Under the pieces are notes generated by a model. That model searched no databases and was not told where the DNA came from. It saw only the letters and a list, made by a program, of their open reading frames with translations. A stretch of DNA of 64,000 nucleotides from Candidatus Omnitrophota bacterium (lineage in GTDB: Bacteria > Omnitrophota > Gorgyraeia > Gorgyraeales > Gorgyraeaceae): NCBI GenBank assembly GCA_041653835.1, contig JBAZEP010000003.1, forward strand, positions 3,812 to 67,811. The letters run 5' to 3'. Positions 1-64,000 of the stretch are shown here, in pieces (position 1 is the stretch's first letter; each line of letters opens with the position of its first letter). The translations under genes were made by a program, and so were the position numbers.

Positions 1-1515
1 AGAAAAACAAAGAAAGAAGCAGCCATCAAAGAAAAAGATGATAAAAAGCAAACAGCCATAGAGAAAACTAAAGAGGCGCAAGATGCACTCACTAGTATTA
101 AAAATACTTTGAAACACACCCTTAACATTAACGACAAGATTAATTGGAATTCTTTATTGGATGAATCTAAATACCCTAAGAACAAGCCTAAAAGTCCAGA
201 ATTATTTACCATGCCAATTGAGCCCCAGAAAAATGACAAAGAATTTACGCCCAAAATAAACTTTATTATATCGTTGTTTTCTAGTTTAAAACAAAAAAGA
301 ATTGGAGAGGCGAATTGTTTATTCGAACGAGCCTATTCTGAATGGAAAATAAAAAAGAACAGTACGGAAGAAAATAATAGAAAATTACTCGAAAAGTATG
401 AAGAAGAAAGTTTGAAATGGCAAGAAGAGGAGAAAAAATATATTGTAAAGAGAGAAGAGAAAAATAAACGAATTTTAGAAAAAAAGGAAAAGTATTTTAG
501 AAAAGATCCAGCTATGATCGCAGAGTATTGTGAAATGATCTTGTCGAATTCGCAATATCCTGATACCTTTCCGCAGGAATTCGATGTTGAATATATACCC
601 GAATCTAAGATTTTGTTAGTAGATTATTTTCTACCAAGCATAGAAGATTTGCCGACATTAAAGGAAGTCAAATATAACATTTCACAAGACCAATTCAAAG
701 AAATACAAATTTCTGAATCAGATTTAAATAAATTATATGATAGCCTCTTATATCAAATAACACTCAGGACAATGCATGAGTTATATGAAGCAGATGTGAT
801 TGATGCTGTCGCCTCAATTATATTCAATGGATATGTTAGATTCATAGATAGCGGCACAGGAAAAGAAGTTTGTGCCTGCATTCTTTCAATTCAAGTGCAA
901 AGAGAAGATTTCTTAAATATTAATCTTGAGAATATTGAACCTAAAGCTTGTTTTAAAGCTTTAAAAGGCATAGGGAGCAGCAAACTTCACGGACTTGCAC
1001 CAATAGCTCCGATTATGAAACTGAACAAAGAAGATAAAAGATTTATAGTGCCATATGAAGTAGCGGGCAAAATTGATGAAGGAACAAATATTGCGGCAAT
1101 GGATTGGCAAGATTTTGAAAACTTAATTAGAGAACTATTTGAAAAAGAATTTGTTCCCGAAGGAGGAGAGGTAAAAATAACTAGAGCAAGTCGAGATGAA
1201 GGTGTAGATGCGGTAATATTTGATCCTGATCCGATTCGTGGTGGCAAGATTGTGATACAGGCTAAAAGGTATACTAATGTAGTTGGGGTTTCAGCTGTTC
1301 GCGATTTATATGGCACAGTTCTTAATGAAGGAGCGATGAAAGGTATTCTTGTTACCACAGCTGATTATGGTCCTGATTCCTATAAATTTGCCCAAGATAA
1401 ACCAATAACTTTATTAAATGGTAACAACCTTTTGCATCTATTGGAAAAGCATGGTCATAAGGCTAAAATTGATATAAGAGAGGCAAAGAAAATTTTAGGT
1501 AAAAAGGTAACTTGA
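1..1515 (+). CDS. Mrr-type restriction endonuclease catalytic-domain protein. A Lys/Glu-rich coiled-coil N-terminal region is fused to a C-terminal Mrr_cat PD-(D/E)xK nuclease domain. The gene is probably 5'-truncated by the window edge.
   Basis: The frame is open from nt 1, and the ORF track starts at TTG 109. The C-terminus (WQDFENLIRELF...GVDAVIFDPD...IVIQAKRYTNVVGVSAVRDLYG...GILVTTADY) matches the Mrr_cat restriction-endonuclease domain pattern (D..D...QCKRY...V..L.G......GI.VTT..F). The gene is AT-rich. Confidence 0.6.
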   Translation, partial: RKTKKEAAIKEKDDKKQTAIEKTKEAQDALTSIKNTLKHTLNINDKINWNSLLDESKYPKNKPKSPELFTMPIEPQKNDKEFTPKINFIISLFSSLKQKRIGEANCLFERAYSEWKIKKNSTEENNRKLLEKYEEESLKWQEEEKKYIVKREEKNKRILEKKEKYFRKDPAMIAEYCEMILSNSQYPDTFPQEFDVEYIPESKILLVDYFLPSIEDLPTLKEVKYNISQDQFKEIQISESDLNKLYDSLLYQITLRTMHELYEADVIDAVASIIFNGYVRFIDSGTGKEVCACILSIQVQREDFLNINLENIEPKACFKALKGIGSSKLHGLAPIAPIMKLNKEDKRFIVPYEVAGKIDEGTNIAAMDWQDFENLIRELFEKEFVPEGGEVKITRASRDEGVDAVIFDPDPIRGGKIVIQAKRYTNVVGVSAVRDLYGTVLNEGAMKGILVTTADYGPDSYKFAQDKPITLLNGNNLLHLLEKHGHKAKIDIREAKKILGKKVT

Positions 1516-1755
1516 TAATGGTAAATATGGACATGTCAAAAAGGGACACACCTATTTGAAGAGTGTCCCCAGATGACACGTCCCCCATAAGTCCCATCTG
1601 GACATCCCTAGTTAGCAAAACGAGTTTCTCGAGATTTCCTTGAGAAAAAGGCTAAGGGCATATTGATTTCATTGAAAGTTGAAAAAGAACATTCCGCTAA
1701 TAGTTGTTAATAGTAACTTCGCTTGTTTTACCTAACAAATTGTATATTTTTTGCT

Positions 1756-1784
1756 TGACATATTAACAATCATTTGCTAAAGTT
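1756..1784 (+). promoter_or_regulatory. sigma70-like promoter TTGACA-N17-TAAAGT upstream of the HTH paralog array
   Basis: Consensus -35 hexamer and a TAnnnT -10, about 40 nt upstream of paralog 1. Confidence 0.5.
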
Positions 1785-1823
1785 TATAGATAATCAAATG
1801 AGATTATAATAAGGAGGGTGCAA

Positions 1824-2105
1824 ATGGAAAGAATATTGCAAAGAATCGATAATAATTTGAAAATTATATTATCAATTCTACTGGAAAAGAAAATAAAGGA
1901 AGGCAACCTTTCGGACCAACAGCAAGTATCTTTTCTTCAGGAAAGAGGATTAGGGATAGCAGAGATAGCTATGGTGCTAGGTAAAACGTCAAATGCTGTG
2001 CGTATTTTACTCACTCGTTTGCGCAAAAAAGGTCAGAAGATTCCTAAAGGAGGAAATCAATGTCAGAAAAAATTCAAGAAAATCAGGAGATACTTAAGAG
2101 ACTAG
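1824..2105 (+). CDS. small HTH protein (sigma-70 region-4 / resolvase-HTH-like), paralog 1 of 5 tandem copies
   Basis: The RBS AAGGAGGG sits 6 nt upstream of the ATG. A C-terminal HTH (GLGIAEIAMVLGKTSNAVRILLTRLRKK) is shared by the four downstream paralogs. The 3' tail overlaps the start of paralog 2. Confidence 0.55.
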   Translation: MERILQRIDNNLKIILSILLEKKIKEGNLSDQQQVSFLQERGLGIAEIAMVLGKTSNAVRILLTRLRKKGQKIPKGGNQCQKKFKKIRRYLRD

Positions 2106-2287
2106 ATATTATTATTAGATTGCTATTGCGGAATATGAAGTCAAAAGAGAGTAATTTATTATTTATGGAACAGATTGGATTGTTAAAGGAGATAGGTTTA
2201 TCTACAGCAGATATCTCTAAAATAACTGGGAAACCGTCAAATTATGTTAGTTCAGTTATTAAGCATTTATCTAAAAAAAGGGGTTAG
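2060..2287 (+). CDS. small HTH protein, paralog 2 of 5
   Basis: RBS AAAGGAGGA; same L.rLD.iI.LL...G....dIA.ilG...n.V pattern as its neighbours. Confidence 0.55.
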   Translation: MSEKIQENQEILKRLDIIIRLLLRNMKSKESNLLFMEQIGLLKEIGLSTADISKITGKPSNYVSSVIKHLSKKRG

Positions 2288-2292
2288 TAGAC

Positions 2293-2499
2293 ATGGAAGA
2301 AAAAAGCCTTTCAGATTTAAGCAAGAAGGTTGATATGGTAATAAAATTAATGATTGCAGGTTTGACTGCGGATAAACAGTTGACTGACCAAGTAAAAATT
2401 CTTGCTTTGGCTGGAATCAAACCTAAAGATATTGCAGATATTCTAGGAACTACTCCAAATACGGTTAGTGTTCTATTGTCAAGAAACAAGAGAAAGTGA
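2293..2499 (+). CDS. small HTH protein, paralog 3 of 5
   Basis: RBS AAAGGGG; HTH motif IADILGTTPNTVSVLLSRNKRK. Confidence 0.55.
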   Translation: MEEKSLSDLSKKVDMVIKLMIAGLTADKQLTDQVKILALAGIKPKDIADILGTTPNTVSVLLSRNKRK

Positions 2500-2508
2500 G
2501 AGGAGAAT

Positions 2509-2763
2509 ATGGAAAAGAAAAAGCCTAAAAGTAATCCGCAAGATGATTCAGTAGATATGACTAAAGTGCTTCTTGAACGATTGATAGTTATTAGTGAAAA
2601 CTCAATGATCGTAAATCTTGCCCTAAAGGGTATTCCTCATCAACAGATCAGAAAAATGGCACAATGCGATATGCGACGAATAACAAGATTATTAAAACCA
2701 GTTAATAAATATATTAAGAAATTTGTTGCCGAGAACGGGACTATAATAGATAAGGAGAAATAA
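2509..2763 (+). CDS. small HTH-like protein, paralog 4 of 5 (most divergent)
   Basis: RBS GAGGAG. It shares the N-terminal L..LI.I and Q.I.....G pattern, but the HTH is degenerate. Confidence 0.5.
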   Translation: MEKKKPKSNPQDDSVDMTKVLLERLIVISENSMIVNLALKGIPHQQIRKMAQCDMRRITRLLKPVNKYIKKFVAENGTIIDKEK

Positions 2764-2764
2764 T

Positions 2765-2980
2765 ATGTCTAAAGATGATGAAATATTACAAAAGTTAGAT
2801 TTGGTCATCAAATTGTTAGGGATAATAGCCACACAGGCAGATCTGTCAAAAAAACTACAACGAGAACAAATTGTTATCCTGGATAAGCACGGTTTTAGAA
2901 ATAAAGATATTGCAAATATTTTTGGGATTAAAGCACAACAAGTAAACAATGCATTATTAGGTAATAAAAAAAGAAAATGA
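2765..2980 (+). CDS. small HTH protein, paralog 5 of 5
   Basis: RBS AAGGAGA; LQKLDLVIKLL...KDIANIFGIKAQQVNNALLGNKKRK. Confidence 0.55.
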   Translation: MSKDDEILQKLDLVIKLLGIIATQADLSKKLQREQIVILDKHGFRNKDIANIFGIKAQQVNNALLGNKKRK

Positions 2981-4038
2981 TTTTTAAGGGGAAAAAATAT
3001 AAAATTGCAATGCTATTAGGCGCTGGAGCGACTAGGGGAGCATTGAGGGGTGTGTCAAGGCCAGTTATAAGAGCCCCATTAAATAAAGATTTTTTTGAAG
3101 TCGCTAAGAGATTTATTTCTTGCCCAGAAGGTAGAAGATATAAAAATTGTTTTATTCGTGTAAGCAAATTTATTTCTGATCAAATGATGCCGTTTAACAA
3201 AAGGCATCCAACTATGGAAGAAGTTTTTAGCACACTTTTTATGTCTAAAGATTTGCCTGTTATCTTTAAAACAGGAAGGGGTAGAATAAGGAAGGAAGGT
3301 TTTAGGCCTGAAATTAGAGATTTTTTAGTTTTGCTAATTGCTATATTTAGATTTCTTCAAATGAATTTAAAACACAAAGATAACATAGACCATTATGCAA
3401 GATTAGTTGCAAAGTTGGAAGAGGGAGATAGCATTATTACTTTGAATTATGATACTTTAGTAGATAATGCCTTGTTGGGTGTTGGATGGAGACCAGAAAA
3501 TGGCTATGGATTCAACGCTTCTTCTAAAATAATCTATAGTAATTTAAGGGCTGTGAAAAGAAGATTTAAAAATGTTTATCTTTTAAAACCACATGGGTCT
3601 CTAAATTGGTTTGCAAGAGGTAAAATTTCTAATCTTGAAGAAACATTGAGTAGGAAAAATGTTTCAAGGATTGATATTGCAAATGCTCCGCGGCTATATA
3701 CTTTAAAGCAAGATAAGTATGTAAGATTTTTTATTCCCCCTCTTTATACAAAATTTTTCAATAATGATTTCTGGAGATATCTTTGGCATGAATCTTATTT
3801 GAGATTAAAGAATTGTAATTGTTTAATAATAATAGGTTGTTCGTTGATTACAACTGACTATCATTTACGAGCGATACTTTCAAAAGTATTAAAAAGTAAG
3901 AAAAAGTTTAAGAAAATTATCATAGTTGACAAAAATCTAAAAGTAGTGGGTAACCTAAAGAAATTTTTTAGAGGTGCTAGTTTTTCTGGTTGTGAAACAT
4001 ACAATACATTTACGGAATACATAGAAAGTTTAAATTAA
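2977..4038 (+). CDS. SIR2-like (SIR2_2/DUF4020-type) domain protein, candidate NADase defence effector
   Basis: Motifs LLGAGATRGA (glycine-rich NAD-binding), TLNYDTLVDN (TNYD motif) and LLKPHGSLNWF (HG catalytic motif) match defence-associated SIR2_2 proteins. Its start overlaps the stop of HTH paralog 5. Confidence 0.6.
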   Translation: MIFKGKKYKIAMLLGAGATRGALRGVSRPVIRAPLNKDFFEVAKRFISCPEGRRYKNCFIRVSKFISDQMMPFNKRHPTMEEVFSTLFMSKDLPVIFKTGRGRIRKEGFRPEIRDFLVLLIAIFRFLQMNLKHKDNIDHYARLVAKLEEGDSIITLNYDTLVDNALLGVGWRPENGYGFNASSKIIYSNLRAVKRRFKNVYLLKPHGSLNWFARGKISNLEETLSRKNVSRIDIANAPRLYTLKQDKYVRFFIPPLYTKFFNNDFWRYLWHESYLRLKNCNCLIIIGCSLITTDYHLRAILSKVLKSKKKFKKIIIVDKNLKVVGNLKKFFRGASFSGCETYNTFTEYIESLN

Positions 4039-4067
4039 CCAAGTTTATAAAGAATTATGTTAATTTT

Positions 4068-4769
4068 TTGCAAATGCCCAAGAACAGATTAAGCAAAAAA
4101 CTTTTATTAAAAGTTGCTAGTAAGTCTAAACATAAACTTAAATACGTAAGAGAACAAATAAGTAAACGAGCGAGTAGGTTGAGCATTAATGCAGAAGCAG
4201 CTCTGATCCTTTGGGCAAAAGAATTAGGCATAGGGACAGCCGCATTTCAACATTCTTTACCTCCTCATATCCAGTTAGACATTAGAAATAGTTTGTCATC
4301 ACCAGCTGGGCATATTAAGAGCGGGAGAGTATTAAAATCAAAGCGTAATTTAAATATGGTATCCAGTAAATCATTGATTAATATAGACGACTTAATTCAG
4401 GATGATGAGCTTCGCAATAGATGCAAAGATTTATTAATGGCTAAAGATAAGTTTGATCGAGTGATTAGAGAAGCAACGACAGTATTAGATCATCGAATTA
4501 AAAAGGCGGGAGGTTTGAAAAATATAAATCCAGTAGATGCTGTTGGTAAAGTATTAAATCCAGATCCCAATAAAGCCATTCTTAAAATAAGTGAAGAAAA
4601 GTCCTTACAGGAAGGGTTCTTTTCTATATGCAAAGGGCTAATGTTGGCTTTCCGTGATCCAGCACATCATGAGATTACTGATAATTTTAGCAGGGAAGAG
4701 GCAATAAAGTTTTGTGGTTTAGTAGATATTGTTTTGGGAGCTATCTCGAAATCAAGTAAAATAACTTAA
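4068..4769 (+). CDS. HEPN-like (TIGR02391/Abi-type) domain protein
   Basis: The C-terminal region carries an Rx4H-type motif (FRDPAHHE) in a helical context resembling Abi/HEPN RNase families. The gene sits immediately downstream of the SIR2 gene in the AT-rich island. Confidence 0.45.
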   Translation: MQMPKNRLSKKLLLKVASKSKHKLKYVREQISKRASRLSINAEAALILWAKELGIGTAAFQHSLPPHIQLDIRNSLSSPAGHIKSGRVLKSKRNLNMVSSKSLINIDDLIQDDELRNRCKDLLMAKDKFDRVIREATTVLDHRIKKAGGLKNINPVDAVGKVLNPDPNKAILKISEEKSLQEGFFSICKGLMLAFRDPAHHEITDNFSREEAIKFCGLVDIVLGAISKSSKIT

Positions 4770-5001
4770 TGGTTCTGTAGATATGAACTTAAAACTTCAG
4801 CAGTTCCGCAGGTTTTGATTTCGATGTTTTACCAGCCCTAGCAGGTTTGAGAAAAGCTTTTTGTTTTGCGGGACATAAGATATTGCATTGCTGGGATGTT
4901 GCCTGTCAAAACAAAACAGAGCGAAGCCCACATTACCAAATAATCCATCTTTTGGTTGAGCGTCTTTTCGAAAGCCTGACAGGGATGGCAAAAACACCTT
5001 A

Positions 5002-5044: not shown

Positions 5045-5153
5045 CATTGACACTTTTATAATTTCTGGTAAGATATAGGTACAATTTACTTCAAAAGCGC
5101 GACTGGCGATGCATGCATGGGAAACCATGAGGGAGCGCGAATACGCAAAATCG

Positions 5154-5192
5154 AACGCCTGGGTTTTAAGAATCCAGGCGTTTATTGTTTTT
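5154..5192 (+). terminator. intrinsic terminator (9-bp stem AACGCCTGG/CCAGGCGTT + TATTGTTTTT), 3' end of a candidate small RNA
   Basis: Hairpin plus T-tract about 100 nt downstream of the promoter-like TTGACA at 5046. No ORF lies between them. Confidence 0.65.
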
Positions 5193-11317: not shown

Positions 11318-12353
11318 AAATACGCCGAAAGAATATGAGATAGGGGATAAAGCGGCGGATGACCTGATAAGCGGACTTGCCGCGAGATCAGGTTCCCTTG
11401 ATACAGAGTCTTTACTGCGCGAGATACTTACGACAGCTGTCAAGCTGGGCATGGAATCCGGGGACAGGGGAGACCTTAAACTTGTAAATAACGCGCTGAA
11501 AGAACTGCGGTATTCTTTCAAGATATTCTCCCCTTACAGGAATGTCAAAAAAGTGATAATCTTCGGTTCCGCCCGGTCGAAACCCGGCTCCGGCGAATAT
11601 AAAATGGCGGAGGAATTTTCCAGGAAAATGGCGGGAAAAGGGTATATGATCGTGACAGGCGGCGGCCCGGGAGTGATGGAAGCGGGCAATAAAGGCGCCG
11701 ACGGAAAAGATTTCGCGCTCAATATCCGCCTTCCCCACGAGCAAAAGCCCAACCCGTATATAAACGAGAAAAACAGGATAATTAATTTTAAATATTTTTT
11801 CACCAGGAAGTTGATTTTTATAAAAGAGACGGACGCGACCGCGCTTTTCCCGGGCGGATTTGGCACTAATGATGAGGGATTCGAGGCGCTTACCCTGATC
11901 CAGACCGGTAAATCCAGGCCGAGGCCTGTAGTCTTGATGGAACCGAAAGGCTCAAGCTACTGGGCTGATTGGAAAAAATTCCTGGATAAACAGATGGTCG
12001 GGAACGGTTACATAAAAAAAGAAGATTGCGATCTTTTTTATATCGCGAAAAGTCCCGGCGAAGCGATCAGGTATATAGAAAATTTTTACAGGGTTTATCA
12101 CTCGATAAGGTATGTCTCGGGCACGACCGTATTAAGGCTGAACAGGAATATCTCCGGAAAAACATTGGATCTTATAAACCAGGAATTCAAAGATATCCTC
12201 GCGAGCGGCAGGATAACGCTTTCGCCTCCCCTGAAAGAGGAGGCCCAGAAAAAAGAATATCTCGATCTCCCCCGTCTTGTCATGGACTTTAATCTCCGGG
12301 ACTATGGCAGGCTCTGCAAATTGATCCGCGCCATAAACGAAGATCCCTCGTAG
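11310..12353 (+). CDS. LOG-family / PpnN-like nucleotide 5'-monophosphate nucleosidase
   Basis: VIIFGSARS...[22 protein letters not shown]00730 motif with PpnN-like N- and C-terminal extensions. Confidence 0.75.
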
Positions 12354-12436: not shown

Positions 12437-12874
12437 ATGTTTACTAAAATATTTGTATTAGCGTGCGCGGTTACGTTATTGTGCGCGGGTACCGGGCTCT
12501 GCGGTGTTTATTCGGATATCGCGGATGAGGTTGAAGCGAAAAACGGGGTAAAAGAAATAACTTATGACCAGTTCATGGACATAAGGGATTCCGGGGAAGA
12601 TTATAAGCTTCTCGATGTGCTTGCCGGGGAAAGTTACAATGAAGGGCACATAGAAGGCTCGCTGTCATTTCCCCTTGATGAAATAGATGAGGCAACAGCC
12701 GCGGAACGCTTATCCATGGACGATAATATAATAGTGTACTGCGGCAGTTTCCAGTGCACAGCTTCTACCGCTGCCGCCCAAAAATTATCCGAATTGGGCT
12801 ATAACGTGCTTGATTATAAAGGCGGGCTCCAGGAATGGCAGGAAAAAGGCAATGAACTTATTTCCGGGATGTAA
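12437..12874 (+). CDS. secreted rhodanese-domain protein
   Basis: A signal peptide is followed by a rhodanese fold with a CGSFQC active-site loop. Confidence 0.8.
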   Translation: MFTKIFVLACAVTLLCAGTGLCGVYSDIADEVEAKNGVKEITYDQFMDIRDSGEDYKLLDVLAGESYNEGHIEGSLSFPLDEIDEATAAERLSMDDNIIVYCGSFQCTASTAAAQKLSELGYNVLDYKGGLQEWQEKGNELISGM

Positions 12875-12903
12875 ACTTAGCTTATATTGACAAAGCAGGA
12901 AGC

Positions 12904-16483: not shown

Positions 16484-16524
16484 GTTGACAATCGCGCTTT
16501 AAAATGATTTAATAAGATAAATAA

Positions 16525-16664
16525 CGGGGAGGCCGCTGGATCGCGGCCTGAGAGTTCCGTGGAGCGAACGGATTACCCTTTGAACCTGAACTGGATAATG
16601 CCAGCGTAGGGAAAGATGTTAATTGTTCCGGCCCTTACGCGTTGTGTGTAAGGGTTATTTTTTT
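16525..16664 (+). promoter_or_regulatory. TPP (THI-box) riboswitch with intrinsic-terminator expression platform
   Basis: The conserved CUGAGA and ACCCUUUGAACCUGA.CUGGAUAAUGCCAGCGUAGGGAA core is present. It is followed by hairpin CCCTTAC...GTAAGGG plus a T-tract at 16632-16664, directly upstream of thi4. Confidence 0.85.
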
Positions 16665-24944: not shown

Positions 24945-24985
24945 CTAATGTCACATTTAAGACAGTGTCTTAAATGTGACATTAG
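24945..24985. repeat. 41-nt perfect palindrome (REP-like element), copy 1
   Basis: CTAATGTCACATTTAAGACA-G-TGTCTTAAATGTGACATTAG. It lies between convergent genes, 3 nt after the UPF0210 stop. Confidence 0.9.
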
Positions 24986-26777: not shown

Positions 26778-26816
26778 TAAGGGAACATTTATGACAGTGT
26801 CATAAATGTTCCCTTA
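26778..26816. repeat. 39-nt perfect palindrome related to the REP-like family (ATGACAGTGTCAT core), copy 2
   Basis: TAAGGGAACATTTATGACA-G-TGTCATAAATGTTCCCTTA. It overlaps the RBS region of the receptor gene. Confidence 0.85.
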
Positions 26817-26863
26817 TTATATATGGCAGGGTGTATATTGTAAACTTAATTTTATATAGTAGT

Positions 26864-28033
26864 TTACAATTGCTTCTTTTCCAGGAACGCCAGAGTTTCT
26901 ATGTGAGGGGTATGGGGGAAAAAGTCAAAGGATTTGAGAGACTTTAAGGTGTATGACGCGTTCAGTATCTTTAAATCCCGGCTGAGGGTGGCGGGGTTGC
27001 AGGAAAGGTATAGTATCTTTTTTATGGGGCTGAGAAGGATCTGTTGGCAGAGCATATTATCCAGGCCTTTTCTCGGGGGATCTACTATTAGCGTATCGAT
27101 ACCGCGGGCCTGGGCGGAAAAGAATAACTTTTCGCAAGGGCCTTCGTAAATCCTGAAATTCCCGATCTTGTTAAGTTTCAGATTGCCCTTCAGGAAAGAT
27201 ATATTCGCGGGGTCGGATTCTATCCCGATAATTTCTTCAGCAAAATCACTTAACGATATCCCGAACGTGCCTATGCCGCAATAAAGGTCGGCTATAATTT
27301 CTTTTTTATCCCGGGACAGATATTTTCGCGTCTCTTTGAGGACGATATCGAGCATCGGGATGTTTATCTGAAAGAACGAACCAGGGCCTATCCTGAAAGT
27401 TTTCCCTGAGATTGTTTCTTCGATATACGGTTTACCCTGTATATTTTCTATTTTTCCAGGAGCATATGCCGTGGCCATCGTGTCTTTTGTGGTATGACTT
27501 TCCCTTATCTCTATTTCCTCGATAGAATCTAAATTGTCTCTATTGATTTTTTCGATAACCGATACAAGAAGGCCGTTGACGTTACGGCTGACAAGAAGGC
27601 ATTCGTTGCCCCATTCTATGAATTTATCCTGTGTTTCAGGCGCGTGATACGCGAGAGAAGCGCGCTTATCTTTCCGGATAACGCTCAGCCTGATCTTATT
27701 CCTGTATCCCCAGATCTCAGGAGAAGGCGTGATGGTAATGGGCATATCCGGAAAAATTTCTTTTAACTGCGATTCCTTGATAGAGAGCTGTGCTTTATAG
27801 TCAATATATTGATAAGGGCCGCATGATTTATAATGGCCGCAGCGGGGGACTGCCCTGAGGGGAGAAGGTTTTATTATTTTTACGGTCTTCGCCTCGATAT
27901 AGTTTTTCTTTTCTTTGACAATTTTTGCTTCTACGATTTCATTCGGGAGCCCTTCATCCGTTAGTATAGTTTTATTGTTTAGGACAGCCAGACTTTTGCC
28001 TGGATAGATGATTTTTTGGATAGTTATTTCCAT
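26864..28033 (-). CDS. rlmD: 23S rRNA (uracil-C5)-methyltransferase RlmD/RumA family
   Basis: TRAM-like N-terminus and SAM-methyltransferase motifs (DLYCGIGTF, VDPPRKG, LSCNPATLSRD). Confidence 0.8.
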   Translation of the reverse strand: MEITIQKIIYPGKSLAVLNNKTILTDEGLPNEIVEAKIVKEKKNYIEAKTVKIIKPSPLRAVPRCGHYKSCGPYQYIDYKAQLSIKESQLKEIFPDMPITITPSPEIWGYRNKIRLSVIRKDKRASLAYHAPETQDKFIEWGNECLLVSRNVNGLLVSVIEKINRDNLDSIEEIEIRESHTTKDTMATAYAPGKIENIQGKPYIEETISGKTFRIGPGSFFQINIPMLDIVLKETRKYLSRDKKEIIADLYCGIGTFGISLSDFAEEIIGIESDPANISFLKGNLKLNKIGNFRIYEGPCEKLFFSAQARGIDTLIVDPPRKGLDNMLCQQILLSPIKKILYLSCNPATLSRDLKILNASYTLKSLKSFDFFPHTPHIETLAFLEKKQL

Positions 28034-28429: not shown

Positions 28430-28504
28430 GCGCCTGTGGCCTAATGGATAGGGCACCAGCCTCCGGAGCTGGTCGTGCAGGTTCGATTCCTGCCAGGCGC
28501 ACCA
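28430..28504 (+). tRNA. tRNA-Arg (anticodon CCG), CCA encoded
   Basis: Cloverleaf with GCGCCTG/CAGGCGC acceptor stem, anticodon loop CTCCGGA and GTTCGATTC T-loop. Confidence 0.85.
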
Positions 28505-31567: not shown

Positions 31568-32501
31568 GCGGGATTTGATTATAGTCGGAGGAGGGCCGGC
31601 AGGCATGGCCGCGGCGATCTCGGCACACGAGAGCGGCGTAAAGGATATACTGCTTATCGAGAGAGACCAGTATCTCGGCGGGATATTGAACCAGTGTATC
31701 CATACCGGGTTTGGCTTGAGTTATTTTAAAGAGGTTTTGACCGGCCCCGAATACGCGGCGCGATTTATCAAAAAGATCGAAGATATGGATGGGATAGATA
31801 TCAGTTTGAGATCAATCGCGGTTAAGCTGACTTCGGATAACGTACTTACATTCCTGAAGCCCGGCAGGCTGGAAGAAGTAAAGGCAAAAGCGATCATCAT
31901 GGCAACGGGCTGCAGGGAAAAAACAAGGGAGATGGTCCATATACAGGGTACAAGGCCGGCGGGTATTTTTTCAGCGGGCCTGGCGCAAAAATTAATGAAC
32001 ATAGAAGGCCTCCTGCCAGGCAGGGAAATAGTGATCGTGGGATCCGGGGATATAGGGCTTATTATGGCGAGAAGGTTTACGCTGGAAGGGGCGAAGGTAA
32101 AGGCTATCATAGAGATACGCAAAGAGACCAGGGGGCTTTTGCGCAACATGGCGCAGTGCGTGGAAGATTTTGACATACCTGTTTATTTTAATCATAAAAT
32201 TTCCAGGATTTACGGAAAAGACAGGGTGGAAAAAGTAAGCGTGATAAAAGTAGACGCGGATTCCAGTGAAATACCCGGCTCTCTGTTCGAGATAAAATGC
32301 GATACCGTGCTCGTATCTGTGGGGCTTATACCCGAGAACGAGCTTATAGAAGCCGCCGGGGTAAGGATAGAGGGGGACAGGACCTCGGCGCCCGGGATTT
32401 TTGTATGCGGGAATTCATTTAAGATATATGATATAGTGGATTCCGTGACCGAGGACAGTTTTTTGGCGGGCAAACTCGCCGCAGATTATATCCTAAAGTA
32501 A
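31560..32501 (+). CDS. NAD(P)/FAD-dependent oxidoreductase (GlpB-like partner of GlpA-like dehydrogenase)
   Basis: IVGGGPAGMAAA and a second Rossmann motif, IVGSGDIGL. Confidence 0.7.
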   Translation: MIKRDLIIVGGGPAGMAAAISAHESGVKDILLIERDQYLGGILNQCIHTGFGLSYFKEVLTGPEYAARFIKKIEDMDGIDISLRSIAVKLTSDNVLTFLKPGRLEEVKAKAIIMATGCREKTREMVHIQGTRPAGIFSAGLAQKLMNIEGLLPGREIVIVGSGDIGLIMARRFTLEGAKVKAIIEIRKETRGLLRNMAQCVEDFDIPVYFNHKISRIYGKDRVEKVSVIKVDADSSEIPGSLFEIKCDTVLVSVGLIPENELIEAAGVRIEGDRTSAPGIFVCGNSFKIYDIVDSVTEDSFLAGKLAADYILK

Positions 32502-32534
32502 GATTTAAGACAATGTCTTAAATCTTACTTTAGG
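32492..32534. repeat. 43-nt perfect palindrome, REP-like family variant, copy 3
   Basis: CCTAAAGTAAGATTTAAGACA-A-TGTCTTAAATCTTACTTTAGG. It overlaps the stop codon of the upstream gene. Confidence 0.9.
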
Positions 32535-40366: not shown

Positions 40367-40903
40367 GTGGATATTCAGGATAGCTGGGAAAAAGCGTTAA
40401 AATACACAAAGATCATAAGGCCGAGGCCGAAGGACCTGCTGACATTCGAACCTACGGATGTGCCTTACCTGTTCCTGGCGGAATCGTCTGTCAATCTGGG
40501 CGATACCGTGGTCAGGAAAGGCGAGGTGCGCGTCGAAAAACCAAACATAATCCTCCCGTCTAATATGCCCCAGTTCGAGGGTTTTGATTTTGACAGGGAA
40601 TTCCAATACGGGCAGGATACGATATTGAACTTTCTTCTTGTCAGGGGCGTCTCATTCCCCTCCCTTAAGTATAACAATAAAACTTCTTCGCTCGATATCT
40701 ATGAGGGCCATCTCGAAAAGGCCGTCGGTTATTATCGCGATAAATTGGAAAGAGGAGAAGATGTCCACAGGGGGCTGGTTACCGGCCCGGAAGACTCCTG
40801 GCAGTTTTCCGTCCTTATCTTTATAGCCTCCCAGATAATACGCTCGGCAGACGGCGATATAAAAAGATTATTGGAACGGTTCAGGGAAGATCGGGATAAT
40901 TAA
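40367..40903 (+). CDS. hypothetical protein
   Basis: 178-aa ORF with no recognisable motif, followed by a strong hairpin. Confidence 0.4.
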   Translation: MDIQDSWEKALKYTKIIRPRPKDLLTFEPTDVPYLFLAESSVNLGDTVVRKGEVRVEKPNIILPSNMPQFEGFDFDREFQYGQDTILNFLLVRGVSFPSLKYNNKTSSLDIYEGHLEKAVGYYRDKLERGEDVHRGLVTGPEDSWQFSVLIFIASQIIRSADGDIKRLLERFREDRDN

Positions 40904-40952
40904 GGTTGAACCTTTGATGCCTTGTTTCCATGGCAAAGGTTCAACCTTAATT
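40898..40952 (+). terminator. long hairpin (19-bp stem AATTAAGGTTGAACCTTTG / CAAAGGTTCAACCTTAATT), probable terminator
   Basis: Perfect 19-bp inverted repeat with a 17-nt loop immediately after the stop codon; the downstream T-tract is weak. Confidence 0.6.
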
Positions 40953-40956
40953 ATTT

Positions 40957-41991
40957 GTGCCCATGCAGAAAAAAGATATCAAAAACCTCACGCTCGAAGA
41001 ATTAAAGGAAGAATTCGGCAGGATTTCCGAGCCTTTATACAGGGCGGCGCAGGTATTTTCCTGGGTCTATAAAAAAGGCGCGGCTGATTTCAGCGCCATG
41101 AATAACCTTCCAAAGGCATTGCGGGATAAGCTGGCGCTGCATTTTTGTATCGGCGCCATAAAACCCCTGAGGCATCTCAAATCTATTGATAAGGCGGAAA
41201 AAGTCCTTTTTCAGCTTACCGACGATAATAAGATAGAAACAGTCCTTATTCCCGCCGCCAGGAGGAATACTCTCTGCGTATCTACGCAGGCGGGCTGTAA
41301 ATACGCGTGCTCTTTCTGCGCGAGCGGCATGAATGGTTTTAAAAGGAACCTCACAACGTCGGAAATATTAAGCCAGGTGTTATTTATGAAGTATAACCTG
41401 AAACACGATCTGACGAATTTTGTTTTTATGGGCATGGGCGAACCTTTTGATAATTATGAAAATGTAGTTAAGGCGATAAGGATAATGAATTCACCCGGGG
41501 CATTGGCGATAGCCGCCAGGAGGATAACTGTTTCCACCTCCGGGATAATACCGGGTATAGAAAAATTCAAAGAATTAGGATTGCAGGTCAATCTTTCCAT
41601 ATCCCTGCACGCCGCGGATAACGCGCTCAGGGATAGATTGATGAGTGTAAATAAAAAATACCCTCTTGAAGAACTCTTAAAGGCTTGCGAAGGTTATATC
41701 AGTTTCGGCGGCAGGATGATCACGCTTGAGTATATAGTAATCAAAGGCGTTAATGACTCTCCGCGGGACGCGGGAGGGCTGGCGCGGATAGCGAAAAGGC
41801 TGAAAGCAAAGGTAAATCTTATAACTTACAGCGATACAGGAATAGCTGATTTTCAGGCCCCTATTAAAGAGGATGTGGAAAGTTTTAAAGATAGTCTTAT
41901 CGAAAAGGGAGTTAACGCGACCATAAGGGAATCCAAGGGCAAAGACATAATGGCGGCATGCGGCCAACTCGCCGCTAGCCCCGTGTCCTAA
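40957..41991 (+). CDS. rlmN: 23S rRNA (adenine2503-C2)-methyltransferase, radical SAM
   Basis: STQAGCKYACSFCASG radical-SAM motif, and the C-terminal MAACGQL catalytic Cys region. Confidence 0.9.
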   Translation: MPMQKKDIKNLTLEELKEEFGRISEPLYRAAQVFSWVYKKGAADFSAMNNLPKALRDKLALHFCIGAIKPLRHLKSIDKAEKVLFQLTDDNKIETVLIPAARRNTLCVSTQAGCKYACSFCASGMNGFKRNLTTSEILSQVLFMKYNLKHDLTNFVFMGMGEPFDNYENVVKAIRIMNSPGALAIAARRITVSTSGIIPGIEKFKELGLQVNLSISLHAADNALRDRLMSVNKKYPLEELLKACEGYISFGGRMITLEYIVIKGVNDSPRDAGGLARIAKRLKAKVNLITYSDTGIADFQAPIKEDVESFKDSLIEKGVNATIRESKGKDIMAACGQLAASPVS

Positions 41992-42028
41992 TGTCACATT
42001 TAAGACACTGTCTTAAATGTGACATTAG
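41988..42028. repeat. 41-nt REP-like palindrome, copy 4
   Basis: CTAATGTCACATTTAAGACA-C-TGTCTTAAATGTGACATTAG. It supplies the rlmN stop codon. Confidence 0.9.
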
Positions 42029-42730: not shown

Positions 42731-42807
42731 GCGCCCGTAGCTCAATTGGATAGAGTGGCTGGCTTCGAACCAGCAGGTTGGGTGTTCGATTCACCCCGGG
42801 CGCACCA
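42731..42807 (+). tRNA. tRNA-Arg (anticodon TCG)
   Basis: Cloverleaf with anticodon loop CTTCGAA. CCA is encoded. Confidence 0.8.
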
Positions 42808-42820
42808 TGCCTAAATATTA

Positions 42821-42849
42821 TTGACGGATTTTTTAACCTGTGATATCAT
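42821..42849 (+). promoter_or_regulatory. promoter TTGACG-N17-(TGa)TATCAT for the tRNA Lys-Leu-Gly cluster
   Basis: Near-consensus -35 and an extended -10, 27 nt upstream of tRNA-Lys. Confidence 0.55.
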
Positions 42850-42875
42850 TTAATCTTAACATCTGAACTAAGAGT

Positions 42876-42951
42876 GCCCCCATAGCTCAGTTGGTAGAGC
42901 ACCTGACTCTTAATCAGGGTGTCACAGGTTCGAGCCCTGTTGGGGGTACCA
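42876..42951 (+). tRNA. tRNA-Lys (anticodon CTT)
   Basis: Anticodon loop CTCTTAA. CCA is encoded. Confidence 0.8.
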
Positions 42952-42952
42952 C

Positions 42953-43037
42953 GCGAGGGTGGCGGAATTGGCAGACGCGCTAGCCTTAGGAGCTAGTGGG
43001 GAGACCCCTGAGGGTTCGACTCCCTCCTCTCGCACCA
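42953..43037 (+). tRNA. tRNA-Leu (anticodon TAG), long variable arm
   Basis: Anticodon loop CTTAGGA with an extra arm; 85 nt. Confidence 0.8.
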
Positions 43038-43091
43038 AATGTGCTGTATGCTTCTAACCTGGTTAGAAGTAGATGAGAAGTAGATGTGTAC

Positions 43092-43166
43092 GCGGGAGTA
43101 GCTCAGTGGTAGAGCTTCTCGTTGCCAACGAGAAGGTCGCGGGTTCGAACCCCGTCTCCCGCTCCA
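43092..43166 (+). tRNA. tRNA-Gly (anticodon GCC)
   Basis: GCGGGAGTAGCTCAGTGGTAGAGC...TTGCCAA...GGTTCGAAC. Confidence 0.85.
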
Positions 43167-51830: not shown

Positions 51831-51875
51831 CCCAAACCCGCATCGGGGAGTCCCCGATGCGGGTTTGGGTTTTTG
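51831..51875 (+). terminator. rho-independent terminator after ahcY (about 19-bp GC-rich stem + T-tract)
   Basis: CCCAAACCCGCATCGGGGA / TCCCCGATGCGGGTTTGGG followed by TTTTTGGG. Confidence 0.8.
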
Positions 51876-51877
51876 GG

Positions 51878-59505: not shown

Positions 59506-60699
59506 ATGAAAATTTTTATTCAGACCTTCGGGTGCCAAATGAATGAGCATGATTCCGAGAGAGTAAGGGACATGCTTGTCCAGGGAGGGTATGCCCTCGC
59601 GGAAAAGATCGAGGACGCGGATATTGTAATTTTCAATACCTGCAGTGTAAGGGCTCATGCCGAAGCGAGGCTTTACGGCAAGATAGGCACCCTTAAGGAT
59701 GTGAAGGCAAAAAAGCCGGGCCTTATTATAGGTGTGATCGGATGTATGGTTGAGGCGCAGAAACAAGAGATTTTCAGGAGACTGCCGCATGTAAATTTTT
59801 TGTGCGGGCCCGCGGACCTGGACAGGATCCCTGAAATATTGGATAAGATACAGGCCGGCGCCGGGCAAATCGCTTATCTGGAGGCGTATAAGCTGAAAAA
59901 GATCCCCGCGTTTTCAAAAGACAGGAACGCGGGCCATGCCGGCTTCGTCAAGATAATGGAAGGCTGTGATAATTTCTGCTCATATTGCATTGTGCCCTAT
60001 GTACGCGGAAGGGAAAGGAGCAGGCCTTCGAAAGAAATTTTGCAGGAAATAGAAGACCTGATAAAAAAGGGCGCCAAAAATATCACGCTTTTAGGCCAGA
60101 ACGTGAATTCATACGGCAAAGGCCTTAAAGAAAAAATCGATTTCGTCTCGCTTTTGACAAAAATAGACAAATTAACCTCCATCCTGCCCCACCCCTGGGG
60201 TGCCACCCCAGGGGTGGCACCCCAGGGGTGGGGAAGCGGTAAGGAAGTTAAGATAAGTTTTATGACCAGCCATCCAAAGGACGCCGGCCCGGAATTATTC
60301 AAAGCGATAAGGGATCTAATATCGGTTTCAAAGAATCTGCACCTGCCTCTCCAGTCCGGTTCGGATAAAATCCTCAAAAAGATGAACCGGAAATACACCG
60401 CGGCAAAATATAAAAAACTCGTCAAGGATTTCAGGAAGATCGTCAAAAACGGCACTGTCACGAGCGATATCATCGTAGGTTTCCCAGGGGAAACCAAAAA
60501 AGATTTCAATGACACTTTAAAGATGGTCAAAGAACTAAGATTTGGCGGCGCCTATATCTTTAAATATTCCCCGCGTCCTCTAACCAAAGCCTTTGGATTC
60601 AAGGATAATGTCAGCCTTAAAGAGAAAGAGCGTCGCCACTCCATACTTTTAAAACTGCAAAAGGAGATGTCTAATGCCACATTTAAGACAGTGTCTTAA
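59506..60699 (+). CDS. miaB: tRNA-2-methylthio-N6-dimethylallyladenosine synthase (MTTase), carries an in-frame 14-aa repeat-encoded insert
   Basis: FGCQMNEHDSE and CDNFCSYC radical-SAM motifs. The TSILPHPWGATPGVAPQGWGSG segment is encoded by a 3x14-nt palindromic repeat. The 3' end runs into REP-like palindrome copy 5. Confidence 0.85.
   Translation: MKIFIQTFGCQMNEHDSERVRDMLVQGGYALAEKIEDADIVIFNTCSVRAHAEARLYGKIGTLKDVKAKKPGLIIGVIGCMVEAQKQEIFRRLPHVNFLCGPADLDRIPEILDKIQAGAGQIAYLEAYKLKKIPAFSKDRNAGHAGFVKIMEGCDNFCSYCIVPYVRGRERSRPSKEILQEIEDLIKKGAKNITLLGQNVNSYGKGLKEKIDFVSLLTKIDKLTSILPHPWGATPGVAPQGWGSGKEVKISFMTSHPKDAGPELFKAIRDLISVSKNLHLPLQSGSDKILKKMNRKYTAAKYKKLVKDFRKIVKNGTVTSDIIVGFPGETKKDFNDTLKMVKELRFGGAYIFKYSPRPLTKAFGFKDNVSLKEKERRHSILLKLQKEMSNATFKTVS
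60190..60230. repeat. three tandem 14-nt units of palindromic CACCCC(T/A)GGGGTG inside miaB
   Basis: Units at 60190-60202, 60204-60216 and 60218-60230. Unit 1 is the reverse complement of units 2 and 3. Confidence 0.9.
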
Positions 60700-60711
60700 A
60701 TGTGGCATTAG
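60671..60711. repeat. 41-nt REP-like palindrome, copy 5 (compensated C/G variant)
   Basis: CTAATGCCACATTTAAGACA-G-TGTCTTAAATGTGGCATTAG. It supplies the miaB stop codon. Confidence 0.9.
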
Positions 60712-62747: not shown

Positions 62748-64000
62748 ATGGAAAAGGCCGTATTAGTAACAGTTGATCTGGGTGAAAAAGGCGAGTGGCC
62801 GCTTAAAGATAGGGCCATGGAATTGAAGGAACTCGCGCGATCGAGCGGGGCATCGGTCGAGGCCGAGATATTGTGCCATAAAGAAAAACCTTCCCCTGAT
62901 CTATTTATAGGCAAAGGCAAGTTCGAAGAATTGCGTGGCATTGTCCAACAGAAAAAAGCCGGCCTTGTGATTTTCAATAACGATCTTACTCCTACCCAAC
63001 TAAGGAATATAGAACACGGGCTCGAGGGTATAAGGGTCATTGACAGGACCCAGCTTATACTGGATATCTTTGCGAGGAACGCCAGGAGTGTGGAAGGCAA
63101 GGTCCAGGTAGAGTTGGCGCAATTGGAATATCTATTGCCGCGGCTTACCGGAAAAGGCATCCAGCTTTCAAGGCTCGGAGGAGGCATAGGTACCAGGGGG
63201 CCGGGAGAAAAGATATTGGAATATGACCGCCGGAGGATCAGGGACCAGATTACGAGGTTAAAGGAAAAATTGGAGGATATAGGCAAAAGGCGGTTGGCTT
63301 TACGCAAGAGAAGGGCTGACGCGTTTCTTACCACCATAGCTATCATAGGTTATACCAATGCCGGCAAGACCACGCTCCTTAACCGGCTCACAGGCTCTAA
63401 AAAATTGACCGCGGACAAACTTTTCAGCACCCTTGACCCTGTCGCGAGAAGCTACAAGCTTCCGAATAACCAAAAGGTCCTATTCCTTGATACAGTTGGA
63501 TTTTTGCATAACCTGCCGCATCATCTTGTGGAGGCTTTTAAATCCACGCTTGAGGAAGTCAGGATGGCGGATATACTTTTGCATGTGCTGGACGCTTCGA
63601 ATGAAAAGGTCCGAGAGCAGGACGAAGCCGTATATAAGGTATTGAAGGAACTTGGCGCGGAAAACAAGATAATCATCGATATCCTCAATAAAACAGACCT
63701 TATCAATGACCCTGACCGGGTATGGCGCCTGAAAAAAGATTTTAAAAATCCTGTCCTGGTATCAGCGCTTACAGGCGAAGGCATAACCGGCCTTGTGGAC
63801 GAAATATCAGAGCTTTTGTCCGGCCTTGTCACGGAAGTCAAAGTAGCGATACCTAATAACAGGATGGATATGGTGAACTTGGTTTACGAGAACGGCAAAG
63901 TTATCCACAGAGAAGACAGGCCTGGCTCGGTTTACCTGGAAGCGATTATTCCCGCACGTTTAAAAAACTCGCTCTCTAATGTCACATTTAAGACACTGTC
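62748..64000 (+). CDS. hflX: GTPase HflX (3' end beyond window; reads through REP-like copy 6)
   Basis: HflX N-domain, G1 GYTNAGKTTL, DTVGF and NKTD motifs. There is no stop before the window end. Confidence 0.85.
   Translation, partial: MEKAVLVTVDLGEKGEWPLKDRAMELKELARSSGASVEAEILCHKEKPSPDLFIGKGKFEELRGIVQQKKAGLVIFNNDLTPTQLRNIEHGLEGIRVIDRTQLILDIFARNARSVEGKVQVELAQLEYLLPRLTGKGIQLSRLGGGIGTRGPGEKILEYDRRRIRDQITRLKEKLEDIGKRRLALRKRRADAFLTTIAIIGYTNAGKTTLLNRLTGSKKLTADKLFSTLDPVARSYKLPNNQKVLFLDTVGFLHNLPHHLVEAFKSTLEEVRMADILLHVLDASNEKVREQDEAVYKVLKELGAENKIIIDILNKTDLINDPDRVWRLKKDFKNPVLVSALTGEGITGLVDEISELLSGLVTEVKVAIPNNRMDMVNLVYENGKVIHREDRPGSVYLEAIIPARLKNSLSNVTFKTL
63976..64000. repeat. REP-like palindrome copy 6 (truncated by window end)
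   Basis: CTAATGTCACATTTAAGACACTGTC matches the left arm of the family. Confidence 0.7.

Follow-up and report, generated by a model that had tools for sequence, protein, structure and literature searches.

The 64,000-nt stretch of a Candidatus Omnitrophota bacterium genome analyzed here (hereafter, the window) contains six copies of a palindrome of 39–43 nt located at gene junctions. We estimate at about 0.6 the probability that these palindromes represent a lineage-specific family of miniature, non-coding, hairpin-forming repeats that behave similarly to repetitive extragenic palindromes (REPs) and MITEs (miniature inverted-repeat transposable elements); the family is probably mobile. Alignment with syntenic loci of related genomes shows that the elements are insertions relative to these loci, at unlinked gene junctions, and the two arms of the palindromes vary in a mirrored fashion. 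If the family is what it appears to be, the range of REP/MITE-like miniature repeats now includes Omnitrophota, a phylum for which almost all knowledge comes from metagenomes.

Six palindromes at gene junctions

The six copies, numbered 1–6 by position, include five complete ones and one that is cut by the window end; each complete copy consists of two arms of 19–21 nt and a 1-nt center. The first-pass annotation had reported six palindromes at these places, and all of them hold: the expected number of chance matches in shuffled window sequence is 0.00, and a covariance model of the family, run on the window, recovers exactly the same six copies and no additional, degenerate ones.

Copy 1 (24945–24985; CTAATGTCACATTTAAGACA-G-TGTCTTAAATGTGACATTAG) is a 41-nt perfect palindrome with 20-nt arms located, as previously proposed for one of the copies, between convergent genes, namely, those for a DUF711 protein (plus strand) and a TonB receptor (minus strand). 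It lies 2 nt beyond the TAA of the DUF711 gene and flush against the TAG of the TonB-receptor gene, and the predicted fold of its RNA has an energy of −25.6 kcal/mol (z −9). Copy 2 (26778–26816; TAAGGGAACATTTATGACA-G-TGTCATAAATGTTCCCTTA), an arm variant with 19-nt arms, occupies the 5′ leader of a TonB-receptor gene (minus strand), 4 nt upstream of the ATG and 47 nt past the stop of a methyltransferase gene, and adjoins a −10-like TATAAT. Copy 3 (32492–32534; CCTAAAGTAAGATTTAAGACA-A-TGTCTTAAATCTTACTTTAGG), another arm variant, with 21-nt arms, holds the TAA stop of an FAD oxidoreductase gene and ends 12 nt before the DUF1667 start codon. Copy 4 (41988–42028; 20-nt arms) is identical to copy 1 except for a C in the center, that is, it has the opposite orientation; the TAA at 41989–41991 is the stop codon of rlmN, and radC starts 18 nt downstream. 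Copy 5 (60671–60711; 20-nt arms) differs from copy 1 by a mirrored T>C / A>G change and lies at the end of a miaB-like open reading frame (ORF), with miaA next; the ORF crosses the 5′ arm and the center (..EMSNATFKTVS*) and ends at the TAA in the 3′ arm. Copy 6 (63976–64000) is represented by the left arm, the center and 4 nt only, and lies at the end of the hflX ORF, which runs into it in the same frame in which the miaB-like ORF runs into copy 5. The residues encoded by copies 5 and 6 can be summarized as ..SN(A/V)TFKT(V/L)S, and the hflX stop is, presumably, the TAA in the 3′ arm of copy 6, beyond the window end. The proposal that the elements supply stop codons is thus borne out by copies 3, 4 and 5, which contain the stops of the FAD oxidoreductase, rlmN and miaB-like genes, respectively.

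The palindromes are not an assembly artefact because the copy-1 sequence recurs, with an identical locus, in independent assemblies (JGI, ENA, Logan: L009–L012). Two contigs from independent assemblies, L009 and L013, break off within a palindrome copy or at its terminus, which is what one would expect of a repeat present in many copies.

Six further copies were detected on five short contigs of the source metagenome sample; the metagenome scan for the palindrome returned 6 contigs of this sample and 2 chance matches. A scan of a genome-contig collection yielded only 8 unrelated singleton matches, which is about the chance level by our estimate. The copy on contig L013 contains a gene stop codon within its CTAA, and one copy on L014 (L014a) adjoins a stop codon, with a second copy (L014b) in the same spacer, 80 nt away. 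The L016 copy is located between groES and groEL, the L019 copy between convergent genes, and the L017 copy 13 nt past the 3′ end of a tRNA, with the element end overlapping the thrS ribosome-binding site. Altogether, 9 of the 12 window-type copies either share sequence with a stop codon or are at most 3 nt away from it, and copies of the element are found in important operons, for example, groES/groEL and dnaK/dnaJ. Viral contigs scanned with either family variant produced no matches, and a phage or other viral origin was rejected.

Empty sites in related genomes

For comparison, we used syntenic loci from six related genomes: L020/L033/L034 (one 833-kb contig), L022/L024, L026/L027/L036, L028/L029, L030/L031 and L032; locus L035, given its gene order in common with the L028/L029 genome, probably comes from a close relative of the latter. 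In the DUF711 gene, the window genome is about equidistant (77–79% nucleotide identity) from the five relatives compared, which are closer to one another, so that the window genome is the outgroup.

The junction between the DUF711 and TonB-receptor genes spans 1–2 nt in L020, L022 and L028 vs 43 nt in the window. The respective sequences are AAC TAA T CTA in L022, AAT TAG C CTA in L020, AAT TAA TC TTA in L028 and AAC TAA CC [41 nt] CTA in the window, so that, under the most parsimonious interpretation of the alignment, copy 1 is a 42-nt insertion relative to these relatives, without target duplication and with no footprint at the empty sites. The copy 2 junction lacks an element in L022 and harbors distinct variants in L020, L026 and L028; the copy 3 junction is element-free in L022/L024 (4 nt, by the L024 gene calls) and, again, filled by variants of their own in L020, L026 and L028. 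Between rlmN and radC, L035 has a stop codon, 2 nt and the ATG, with the radC ribosome-binding site within the last rlmN codons; in the window, copy 4 lies upstream of the radC ribosome-binding site, and RlmN has a new C-terminus that ends at the TAA of the element, whereas in L034 and L036 this junction is filled by local variants. The miaB and miaA genes of L033 overlap by 10 nt and contain no element; MiaB orthologs end in ..SSKKCQ*, which, in the window, is replaced by element-encoded residues and a stop. The hflX end is element-free in L033 and L032. Conversely, an element is present between glpK and glpA in L020 where the window genome and L022 have an ATGA overlap. No direct repeats flanking any of the copies were found.

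Several specific expectations were rejected. Truncation of MiaB by copy 5 does not apply because only the last 7–8 codons are replaced, and the lack of the TRAM domain is the norm, with lengths of 356–430 aa among the closest 100-odd homologs. Insertion 3′ of a pre-existing CTAA is incompatible with the CC that separates the gene TAA from copy 1, and a fixed target tetranucleotide is incompatible with the heterogeneity of the flanks.

At the miaB/miaA junction of L032, an unrelated 48-nt palindrome (3198–3245) occupies the same point as copy 5. This is a composite of two 15-nt palindromes (CAAGACC-W-GGTCTTG) that encodes the MiaB C-terminus; its core, AAGAC...GTCTT, resembles the center of the window family.

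The first-pass annotation placed the palindromes exactly at the 3′ ends of genes. The association with stop codons stands for the window, but the wider family is found also in 5′ untranslated regions and in the gaps between divergent promoters, and the apparent precision mostly reflects insertion into a very compact genome, in which the junctions span 0–4 nt or the genes overlap.

Variants of the element in related genomes

Three of the related genomes carry variants of their own, with an outer stem that is either the same as that of the window family or mirrored (TAAGTTYACA), and a length, from TAA to TTA, of mostly 39 nt (two L026 copies are 37 nt long). The variant of the L020 genome consists of TAAGTTTACA, a 19-nt asymmetric, partly paired core that occurs in either orientation, and TGTAAACTTA, and is present in 11 copies in about 59 kb. 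The L026 genome carries variants of the form TAAG(G)TTACAC..TGACA-N-TGTCA.., of which the copy at site 3 has two U.G pairs on the sense strand. The L028 variants (AAACTTGACA...TGTCAAGTTT) form dimers at two junctions. The L017/L019 variant of the window family agrees with the L026 site-3 element at 16 of the 20 arm positions. The covariance model of the window family detects the elements of L026, L020/L033/L034 and L028, with E-values from 1e-14 to 0.3, and finds none in L022, L030, L031, L032 and L035. The copies in the relatives, including those in 5′ untranslated regions and divergent promoter regions, occupy gene junctions in general.

The same junctions are used recurrently. Sites 2, 3 and rlmN/radC are filled in both L020 and L026, and the window and L026 genomes have 4 of 4 occupied junctions in common (hypergeometric P about 2e-4, on a rough count of 30 junctions). 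At the DUF711 end, different variants are inserted in the window and L026 at points about 7 nt apart, so that these two insertions were acquired independently. Two sources seem to contribute to the shared occupancy: ancestral copies homogenized within genomes, and insertion, more than once, at the few junctions that tolerate or attract the element.

The stop-free frame of the L020-genome element affects gene prediction: gene callers run miaA (L033, 11942–11980) and rlmN (L034, 9951–9989) through the element, and the C-terminal residues so added may be spurious or real. More generally, the family is an annotation hazard, with copies that break metagenome assemblies and make gene callers extend or fuse ORFs. 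In the window, the elements rewrite the last codons of the housekeeping genes rlmN, miaB and hflX.

Two short sequences in the window are similar to the variants of the relatives. An inverted repeat at 26833–26866 (TTGTAAACTTAAT...AGTTTACAA), conserved downstream of the methyltransferase gene in L020, L022, L026, L028 and L030, overlaps the −35 of the promoter-like site of the TonB-receptor gene and contains TGTAAACTTA, an arm of the L020-type element; it could be a progenitor of the family or a coincidence. The sequence TGTAAACTTAG at 12870–12880, which overlaps the stop codon of a rhodanese-domain gene, is an exact half-arm of the variant seen in the relatives and stands alone; it may have remained from a copy that was lost or may be there by chance.

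Mirrored variation of the arms

Each arm consists of (C)TAA, a variable 6-mer (TGTCAC, TGCCAC, AGTAAG, GGGAAC and GTTCAC were observed) and ATTTA(A/T)GACA, followed by the single central base. Among the copies, conservation is seen in the inner 10 bp (ATTTAAGACA) and in the outer TAA, and most copies keep the outer C-TA / TA-G. The central variation among G, C and A had been taken as the mark of an unpaired tip; it is no evidence of one because G and C are one and the same G:C pair read in the two orientations of a symmetric element. Counted in this way, the center is G:C in 10 of the 12 copies and A:T in 2, and hence does not vary freely.

We analyzed the symmetry in 12 copies (11 distinct ones), that is, 20 pairs and 220 cells. 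The bases are paired in 99.1% of the cells, with only 3 of the 220 being G.U; 9 of the 20 pairs are changed on both sides, in 22 doubly changed cells. None of 500 shuffles reached this level of mirrored change, and no slid register comes near it. Thus, the compensatory pair previously noticed in copy 5 (T>C/A>G) is indeed present, but compensation is far wider than this single case. Most of the changes are double transversions, the most frequent being G:C<>U:A and C:G<>A:U, for which no wobble intermediate is possible. The mirroring extends to the outermost TA, which has become CA/TG in L014a; L014b carries one unmirrored C>T. Neither orientation is favored relative to transcription, in that both the G/C center of the window type and the asymmetric loop of the L020 type occur both ways. 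Because of the mirrored double transversions and the lack of an orientation bias, the symmetry appears to be restored at the DNA level: the observations point to the copying of one arm onto the other rather than to stepwise compensation in RNA. Of the two explanations offered in the first-pass annotation, selection on the hairpin and half-site copying, the latter is accordingly the better one.

In 5 of the 14 copies of the relatives’ variants, the stem reaches 2–3 nt into the non-conserved flanks (P about 0.001), and at L026 site 1, four flank bases are present as an inverted copy. These extended stems are consistent with arm templating or with insertion into small palindromic targets. Both phenomena have precedents: quasipalindrome template-switch mutation has been documented (PMC7202029), and some REPs insert into palindromic targets (PMC3733652). 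In Escherichia coli thyA and lacZ reporters, template switching perfects imperfect inverted repeats and, accordingly, can mirror changes and lengthen stems into the flanks (PMC7202029); however, it is a mutational mechanism rather than an element family and does not explain dispersal to new loci. Given its fixed length, perfect symmetry and mirrored block, the present family is a clean natural system for investigating how palindromy persists, whether by arm templating or by selection, and could show how repeats move without leaving duplications.

Two interpretations of the arms were rejected. An arm is not a mini-REP (TGTC...GACA) because the inner repeat is missing from variant arms, and TGTCACA...TGTGACA is not a CRP-like or other operator because that block is the variable one.

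Comparison with known repeats

The first-pass annotation compared the palindromes with REPs and bacterial interspersed mosaic elements (BIMEs). The likeness holds for the dispersal of hairpin repeats at stop codons and for REP-like behavior, but the window contains no REP tag and no BIME array, and the stems are long and perfect. As the REP/REPIN sequences of E. coli, Pseudomonas and Stenotrophomonas, the Omnitrophota elements are short (20–40 nt), multi-copy, extragenic hairpins located mostly just past ORFs, with termini that often provide the stop, some units inside genes, a species-specific consensus and no target duplication. Among the described features of REPs are, precisely, termini that donate stop codons, a species-specific consensus, subfamilies with complementary stem changes, and intragenic copies (PMC3733652). 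The comparison extends to possible effects: impact on mRNA stability and termination has been proposed or shown for REPs located within 15 nt of a stop codon (PMC3733652, PMC12306157), and such REPs stall ribosomes according to work cited in PMC12306157.

The differences are equally distinct. In a canonical REP, one end of the stem-loop carries a conserved tetranucleotide, GTAG or CGTC, that is not paired, and the stem of 5–13 bp frequently includes G.T pairs or bulges (PMC3733652). The ends of the Omnitrophota elements, (C)TAA...TTA(G), are fully paired and symmetric, and neither GTAG nor CGTC tags are present in any of the 12 copies. The stem of the window family is 19–21 bp, essentially all Watson-Crick, with a 1-nt center, as opposed to the 5–13 bp and a 2–20-nt loop of REPs. 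The copies are mostly singletons, including all six in the window, rather than head-to-head dimers or BIME arrays; the exceptions are the two L014 copies and the L028 dimers.

No REP-associated tyrosine transposase (RAYT; Y1 HUH transposase, PF01797), the gene for which is typically flanked by REPs, was found among the window ORFs by direct Pfam scans and by synteny with annotated loci, in agreement with the initial observation, nor is one included in the Pfam annotations already available for the relatives’ loci. The possibility that the low-GC first 5 kb of the window encode a transposase was considered and rejected, the genes in this region being of the defense type rather than those of mobile elements.

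With the IS200/IS605 insertion sequences (IS; IS608, ISDra2), the family shares a hairpin as the recognizable feature, seamless insertion, the lack of target duplication and empty sites without footprint. The IS200/IS605 elements, however, have a fixed tetra- or pentanucleotide target beside the left end, whereas none is evident here beyond the (C)TAA of the element itself, and they contain two unlike subterminal hairpins instead of one symmetric palindrome; no TnpA is seen here. Bacterial MITEs (Correia/NEMIS, RUP, ERIC, mycobacterial MIRUs) are, similarly, small non-coding repeats in intergenic regions of operons that form RNA hairpins which are processed or alter mRNA stability, and MIRUs can carry stop and start signals overlapping the flanking ORFs. 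Bacterial MITEs are usually at least 100 bp long and possess terminal inverted repeats, an internal segment and target duplications such as TA; the window family has neither a duplication nor an internal segment, and no parent IS was found in the loci examined. The Rickettsia palindromic elements (RPEs) and intragenic REPs are tolerated in coding sequence and add in-frame residues, and in the present family, copies 5 and 6 add 9 residues to their ORFs, and miaA reads through the L033 element at 11942. RPEs differ in being 100–150 bp long, CGTC-tagged and typically gene-internal rather than located at the last codons.

Other known classes do not fit. Rfam yielded no match at any copy, and a permissive search produced only generic miRNA-hairpin matches far below the threshold. 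Integron attC sites were rejected: the RYYYAAC / GTTRRRY core sites are not seen upon inspection of the copy alignment, and the neighbors are syntenic housekeeping genes in all relatives examined. A DNA uptake sequence (DUS/USS) was rejected given that the half-site never occurs alone. Intrinsic terminators were rejected as well: the element is 24–37% G+C and is not followed by a T-run on the transcribed strand, so that the earlier conclusion that, lacking a trailing U-tract, the copies are not canonical intrinsic terminators is sustained. By contrast with this AT-rich family, a canonical terminator at 51831–51876, between convergent genes, combines a perfect, G+C-rich stem of 19 bp (−42.6 kcal/mol) with a trailing TTTTT.

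A full-text literature search for such elements in Omnitrophota returned no relevant report. The novelty lies in the host phylum, in an architecture that is perfectly symmetric, largely fixed at 39 nt and endowed with a mirrored variable block, in the missing REP tags, in the evidence that symmetrization takes place at the DNA level, and in the repeated occupancy of the same junctions in different species.

Alternative explanations

The palindromes might be functional RNA elements, such as terminators or attenuators without a U-tract, intercistronic hairpins that are cleaved by RNase III or block exonucleases, or modulators of translation termination, in which case selection rather than selfish mobility would explain both their spread and their position at stop codons. 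The hairpins are very stable (z −7 to −9), three-quarters of the window-type copies (9/12) overlap or nearly abut a stop, copies reside in important operons (groES/groEL, dnaK/dnaJ), the same junctions are filled in several species, and the L026 site-3 copy has its two U.G pairs on the sense strand; moreover, a perfect stem of 19–20 bp is about the minimal RNase III substrate. Nevertheless, we consider selection on RNA unlikely as the principal explanation. There is no orientation preference relative to transcription; the near-exclusively Watson-Crick stems and mirrored double transversions are not predicted by stepwise RNA compensation; some copies occupy divergent promoter gaps and 5′ leaders; close relatives lack the element at the same junctions, where the genes simply overlap; and there is no U-tract, yet canonical terminators exist in the genome. 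Furthermore, identical sequences at unlinked loci would still require a copying mechanism.

That the element is a minimal MITE of an IS630/Tc1-like or another DDE IS, with two terminal inverted repeats placed back to back at CTAG and a duplication of TA, appears quite improbable. The conservation of the outer C-TA / TA-G in most copies, the make-up of the element, which consists of two inverted arms only, and the CTAG that remains once “TA + element” is removed from copies 3 and 5 would be compatible with such an origin, but the cleanest empty site, TAA-N-CTA, contains no CTAG, and parsimony favors insertion without duplication. The outer bases of L014a read CA/TG instead of TA/TA; this change is mirrored and does not form a direct repeat, so that these bases behave as part of the stem rather than as a target duplication. 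Neither the window nor loci totalling about 240 kb contain lone arms or an IS with such ends, and a mirrored 6-bp variable block is unexpected in inverted repeats bound by a transposase. Similarly improbable, in our assessment, are binding sites for a dimeric protein (a nucleoid protein, a regulator, gyrase, or IHF as at BIMEs) or pairs of uptake signals. Perfect two-fold symmetry, the conserved inner 10 bp and outer TAA, and the position of copy 2 between a promoter-like −10 and the start codon would agree with this interpretation. The half-site is never found alone, however (neither ATTTAAGACA nor the full arm occurs in the window outside the palindromes), a non-contacted spacer would not need mirrored changes, in the relatives, the inner half is replaced in its entirety, but the length is retained, as is the outer stem or a mirrored form of it, and most copies lie in coding 3′ ends rather than in promoters.

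The interpretation of the palindromes as a mobile REP/MITE-like family, which we prefer, faces difficulties of its own. The evidence of mobility is presence or absence between species at 77–79% nucleotide identity rather than polymorphism within a population. Transposases of any kind were not detected in the 64-kb window and in roughly 180 kb of the relatives’ loci, save for one large serine recombinase in L032. The flanks of the copies contain no consistent target tetranucleotide, although elements of the IS200/IS605 type normally need one. The repeated occupancy of the same junctions could stem from ancient orthologous copies homogenized by gene conversion, and the genome-wide copy number and enrichment at junctions are extrapolated from a partial genome.

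A putative mechanism of spread

By analogy with HUH enzymes of the IS200/IS605/RAYT type, the element would move, or be copied, as a single-stranded hairpin in a seamless “peel-and-paste” reaction; the membership in that family is putative, and the mobilizing enzyme would be encoded elsewhere in the genome and act in trans. Palindromy would be kept perfect when one arm templates the other, via either hairpin-templated repair or synthesis or quasipalindrome template switching. The copies would survive only where they are harmless; in so compact a genome, such places lie upstream of the next ribosome-binding site, in the last codons or in the 0–4-nt gaps where genes end. Insertion at such places would be tolerated because the element brings along stop codons in two of the three frames, in both orientations (TAA, TAA, TGA, TAG). 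When transcribed, a copy is predicted to close the upstream cistron with a 19–20-bp RNA hairpin (−25 to −30 kcal/mol) that would begin at the stop codon or span it. By analogy with the REPs of E. coli, such a hairpin would be expected to slow down ribosomes at termination, to block exonucleases that act from the 3′ end, or both; activity as an intrinsic terminator is not among the expected effects.

A bolder version of this scheme, which we regard as doubtful, is that the elements constitute an undescribed class of self-symmetrizing hairpin transposons, fixed in length at about 39 nt, that would be moved seamlessly by a non-RAYT enzyme of Omnitrophota and home repeatedly to the same stop-codon junctions. 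Regeneration of one arm from the other at each copying would then explain why palindromy is perfect and why double transversions and flank nucleotides are mirrored, and the homing element would rewrite gene C-termini and intercistronic signals.

Other repeats and features

Apart from the six copies, the window and the related loci contain several other palindromic sequences. Within the miaB-like gene, a G+C-rich palindromic repeat at 60184–60236 (CCCCACCCCTGGGGTGCCACCCC A GGGGTGGCACCCCAGGGGTGGGG; 26-nt arms, 96% complementary) is in frame in the radical-SAM domain and encodes ..LPHPWGATPGVAPQGWGSG..; orthologs have a similar insert, a different insert or none at this position, and the repeat looks like an old intragenic palindromic insertion. 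A perfect hairpin at 40896–40954 (ATAATTAAGGTTGAACCTTTG...CAAAGGTTCAACCTTAATTAT), with 21-nt arms and a 17-nt loop, holds the TAA stop of the gene (178 aa) immediately upstream of rlmN; it has no second copy in the window, is not found at the same junction of L034, L035 and L036, and has TAAGGTT in common with the L026 variant. A second, G+C-rich palindrome family (CTCYCCGTTCGCCGAACGG...CCGTTCGGCGAACGGRGAG) is represented in L026 (10449–10496), L031 (6097–6144) and L030 (8348–8387) and, in two relatives, sits between the glpA-like and FAD oxidoreductase genes; the L031 copy keeps the reading frame, and gene prediction merges the two genes there into one 811-aa ORF.

The first 5,000 nt of the window (1–5000) have a G+C content of 32.5% vs about 47% and encode proteins with Mrr_cat restriction endonuclease, SIR2_2, Hypoth_Ymh and GIY-YIG domains; this region is probably an acquired defense island. 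The Rfam matches in the window consist of two riboswitches (5089–5171 and 16515–16629), namely, a ZTP riboswitch upstream of a pyruvate formate-lyase-like gene and a TPP riboswitch upstream of a Thi4 gene, and five tRNA genes (28430–28501 and 42731–43163).

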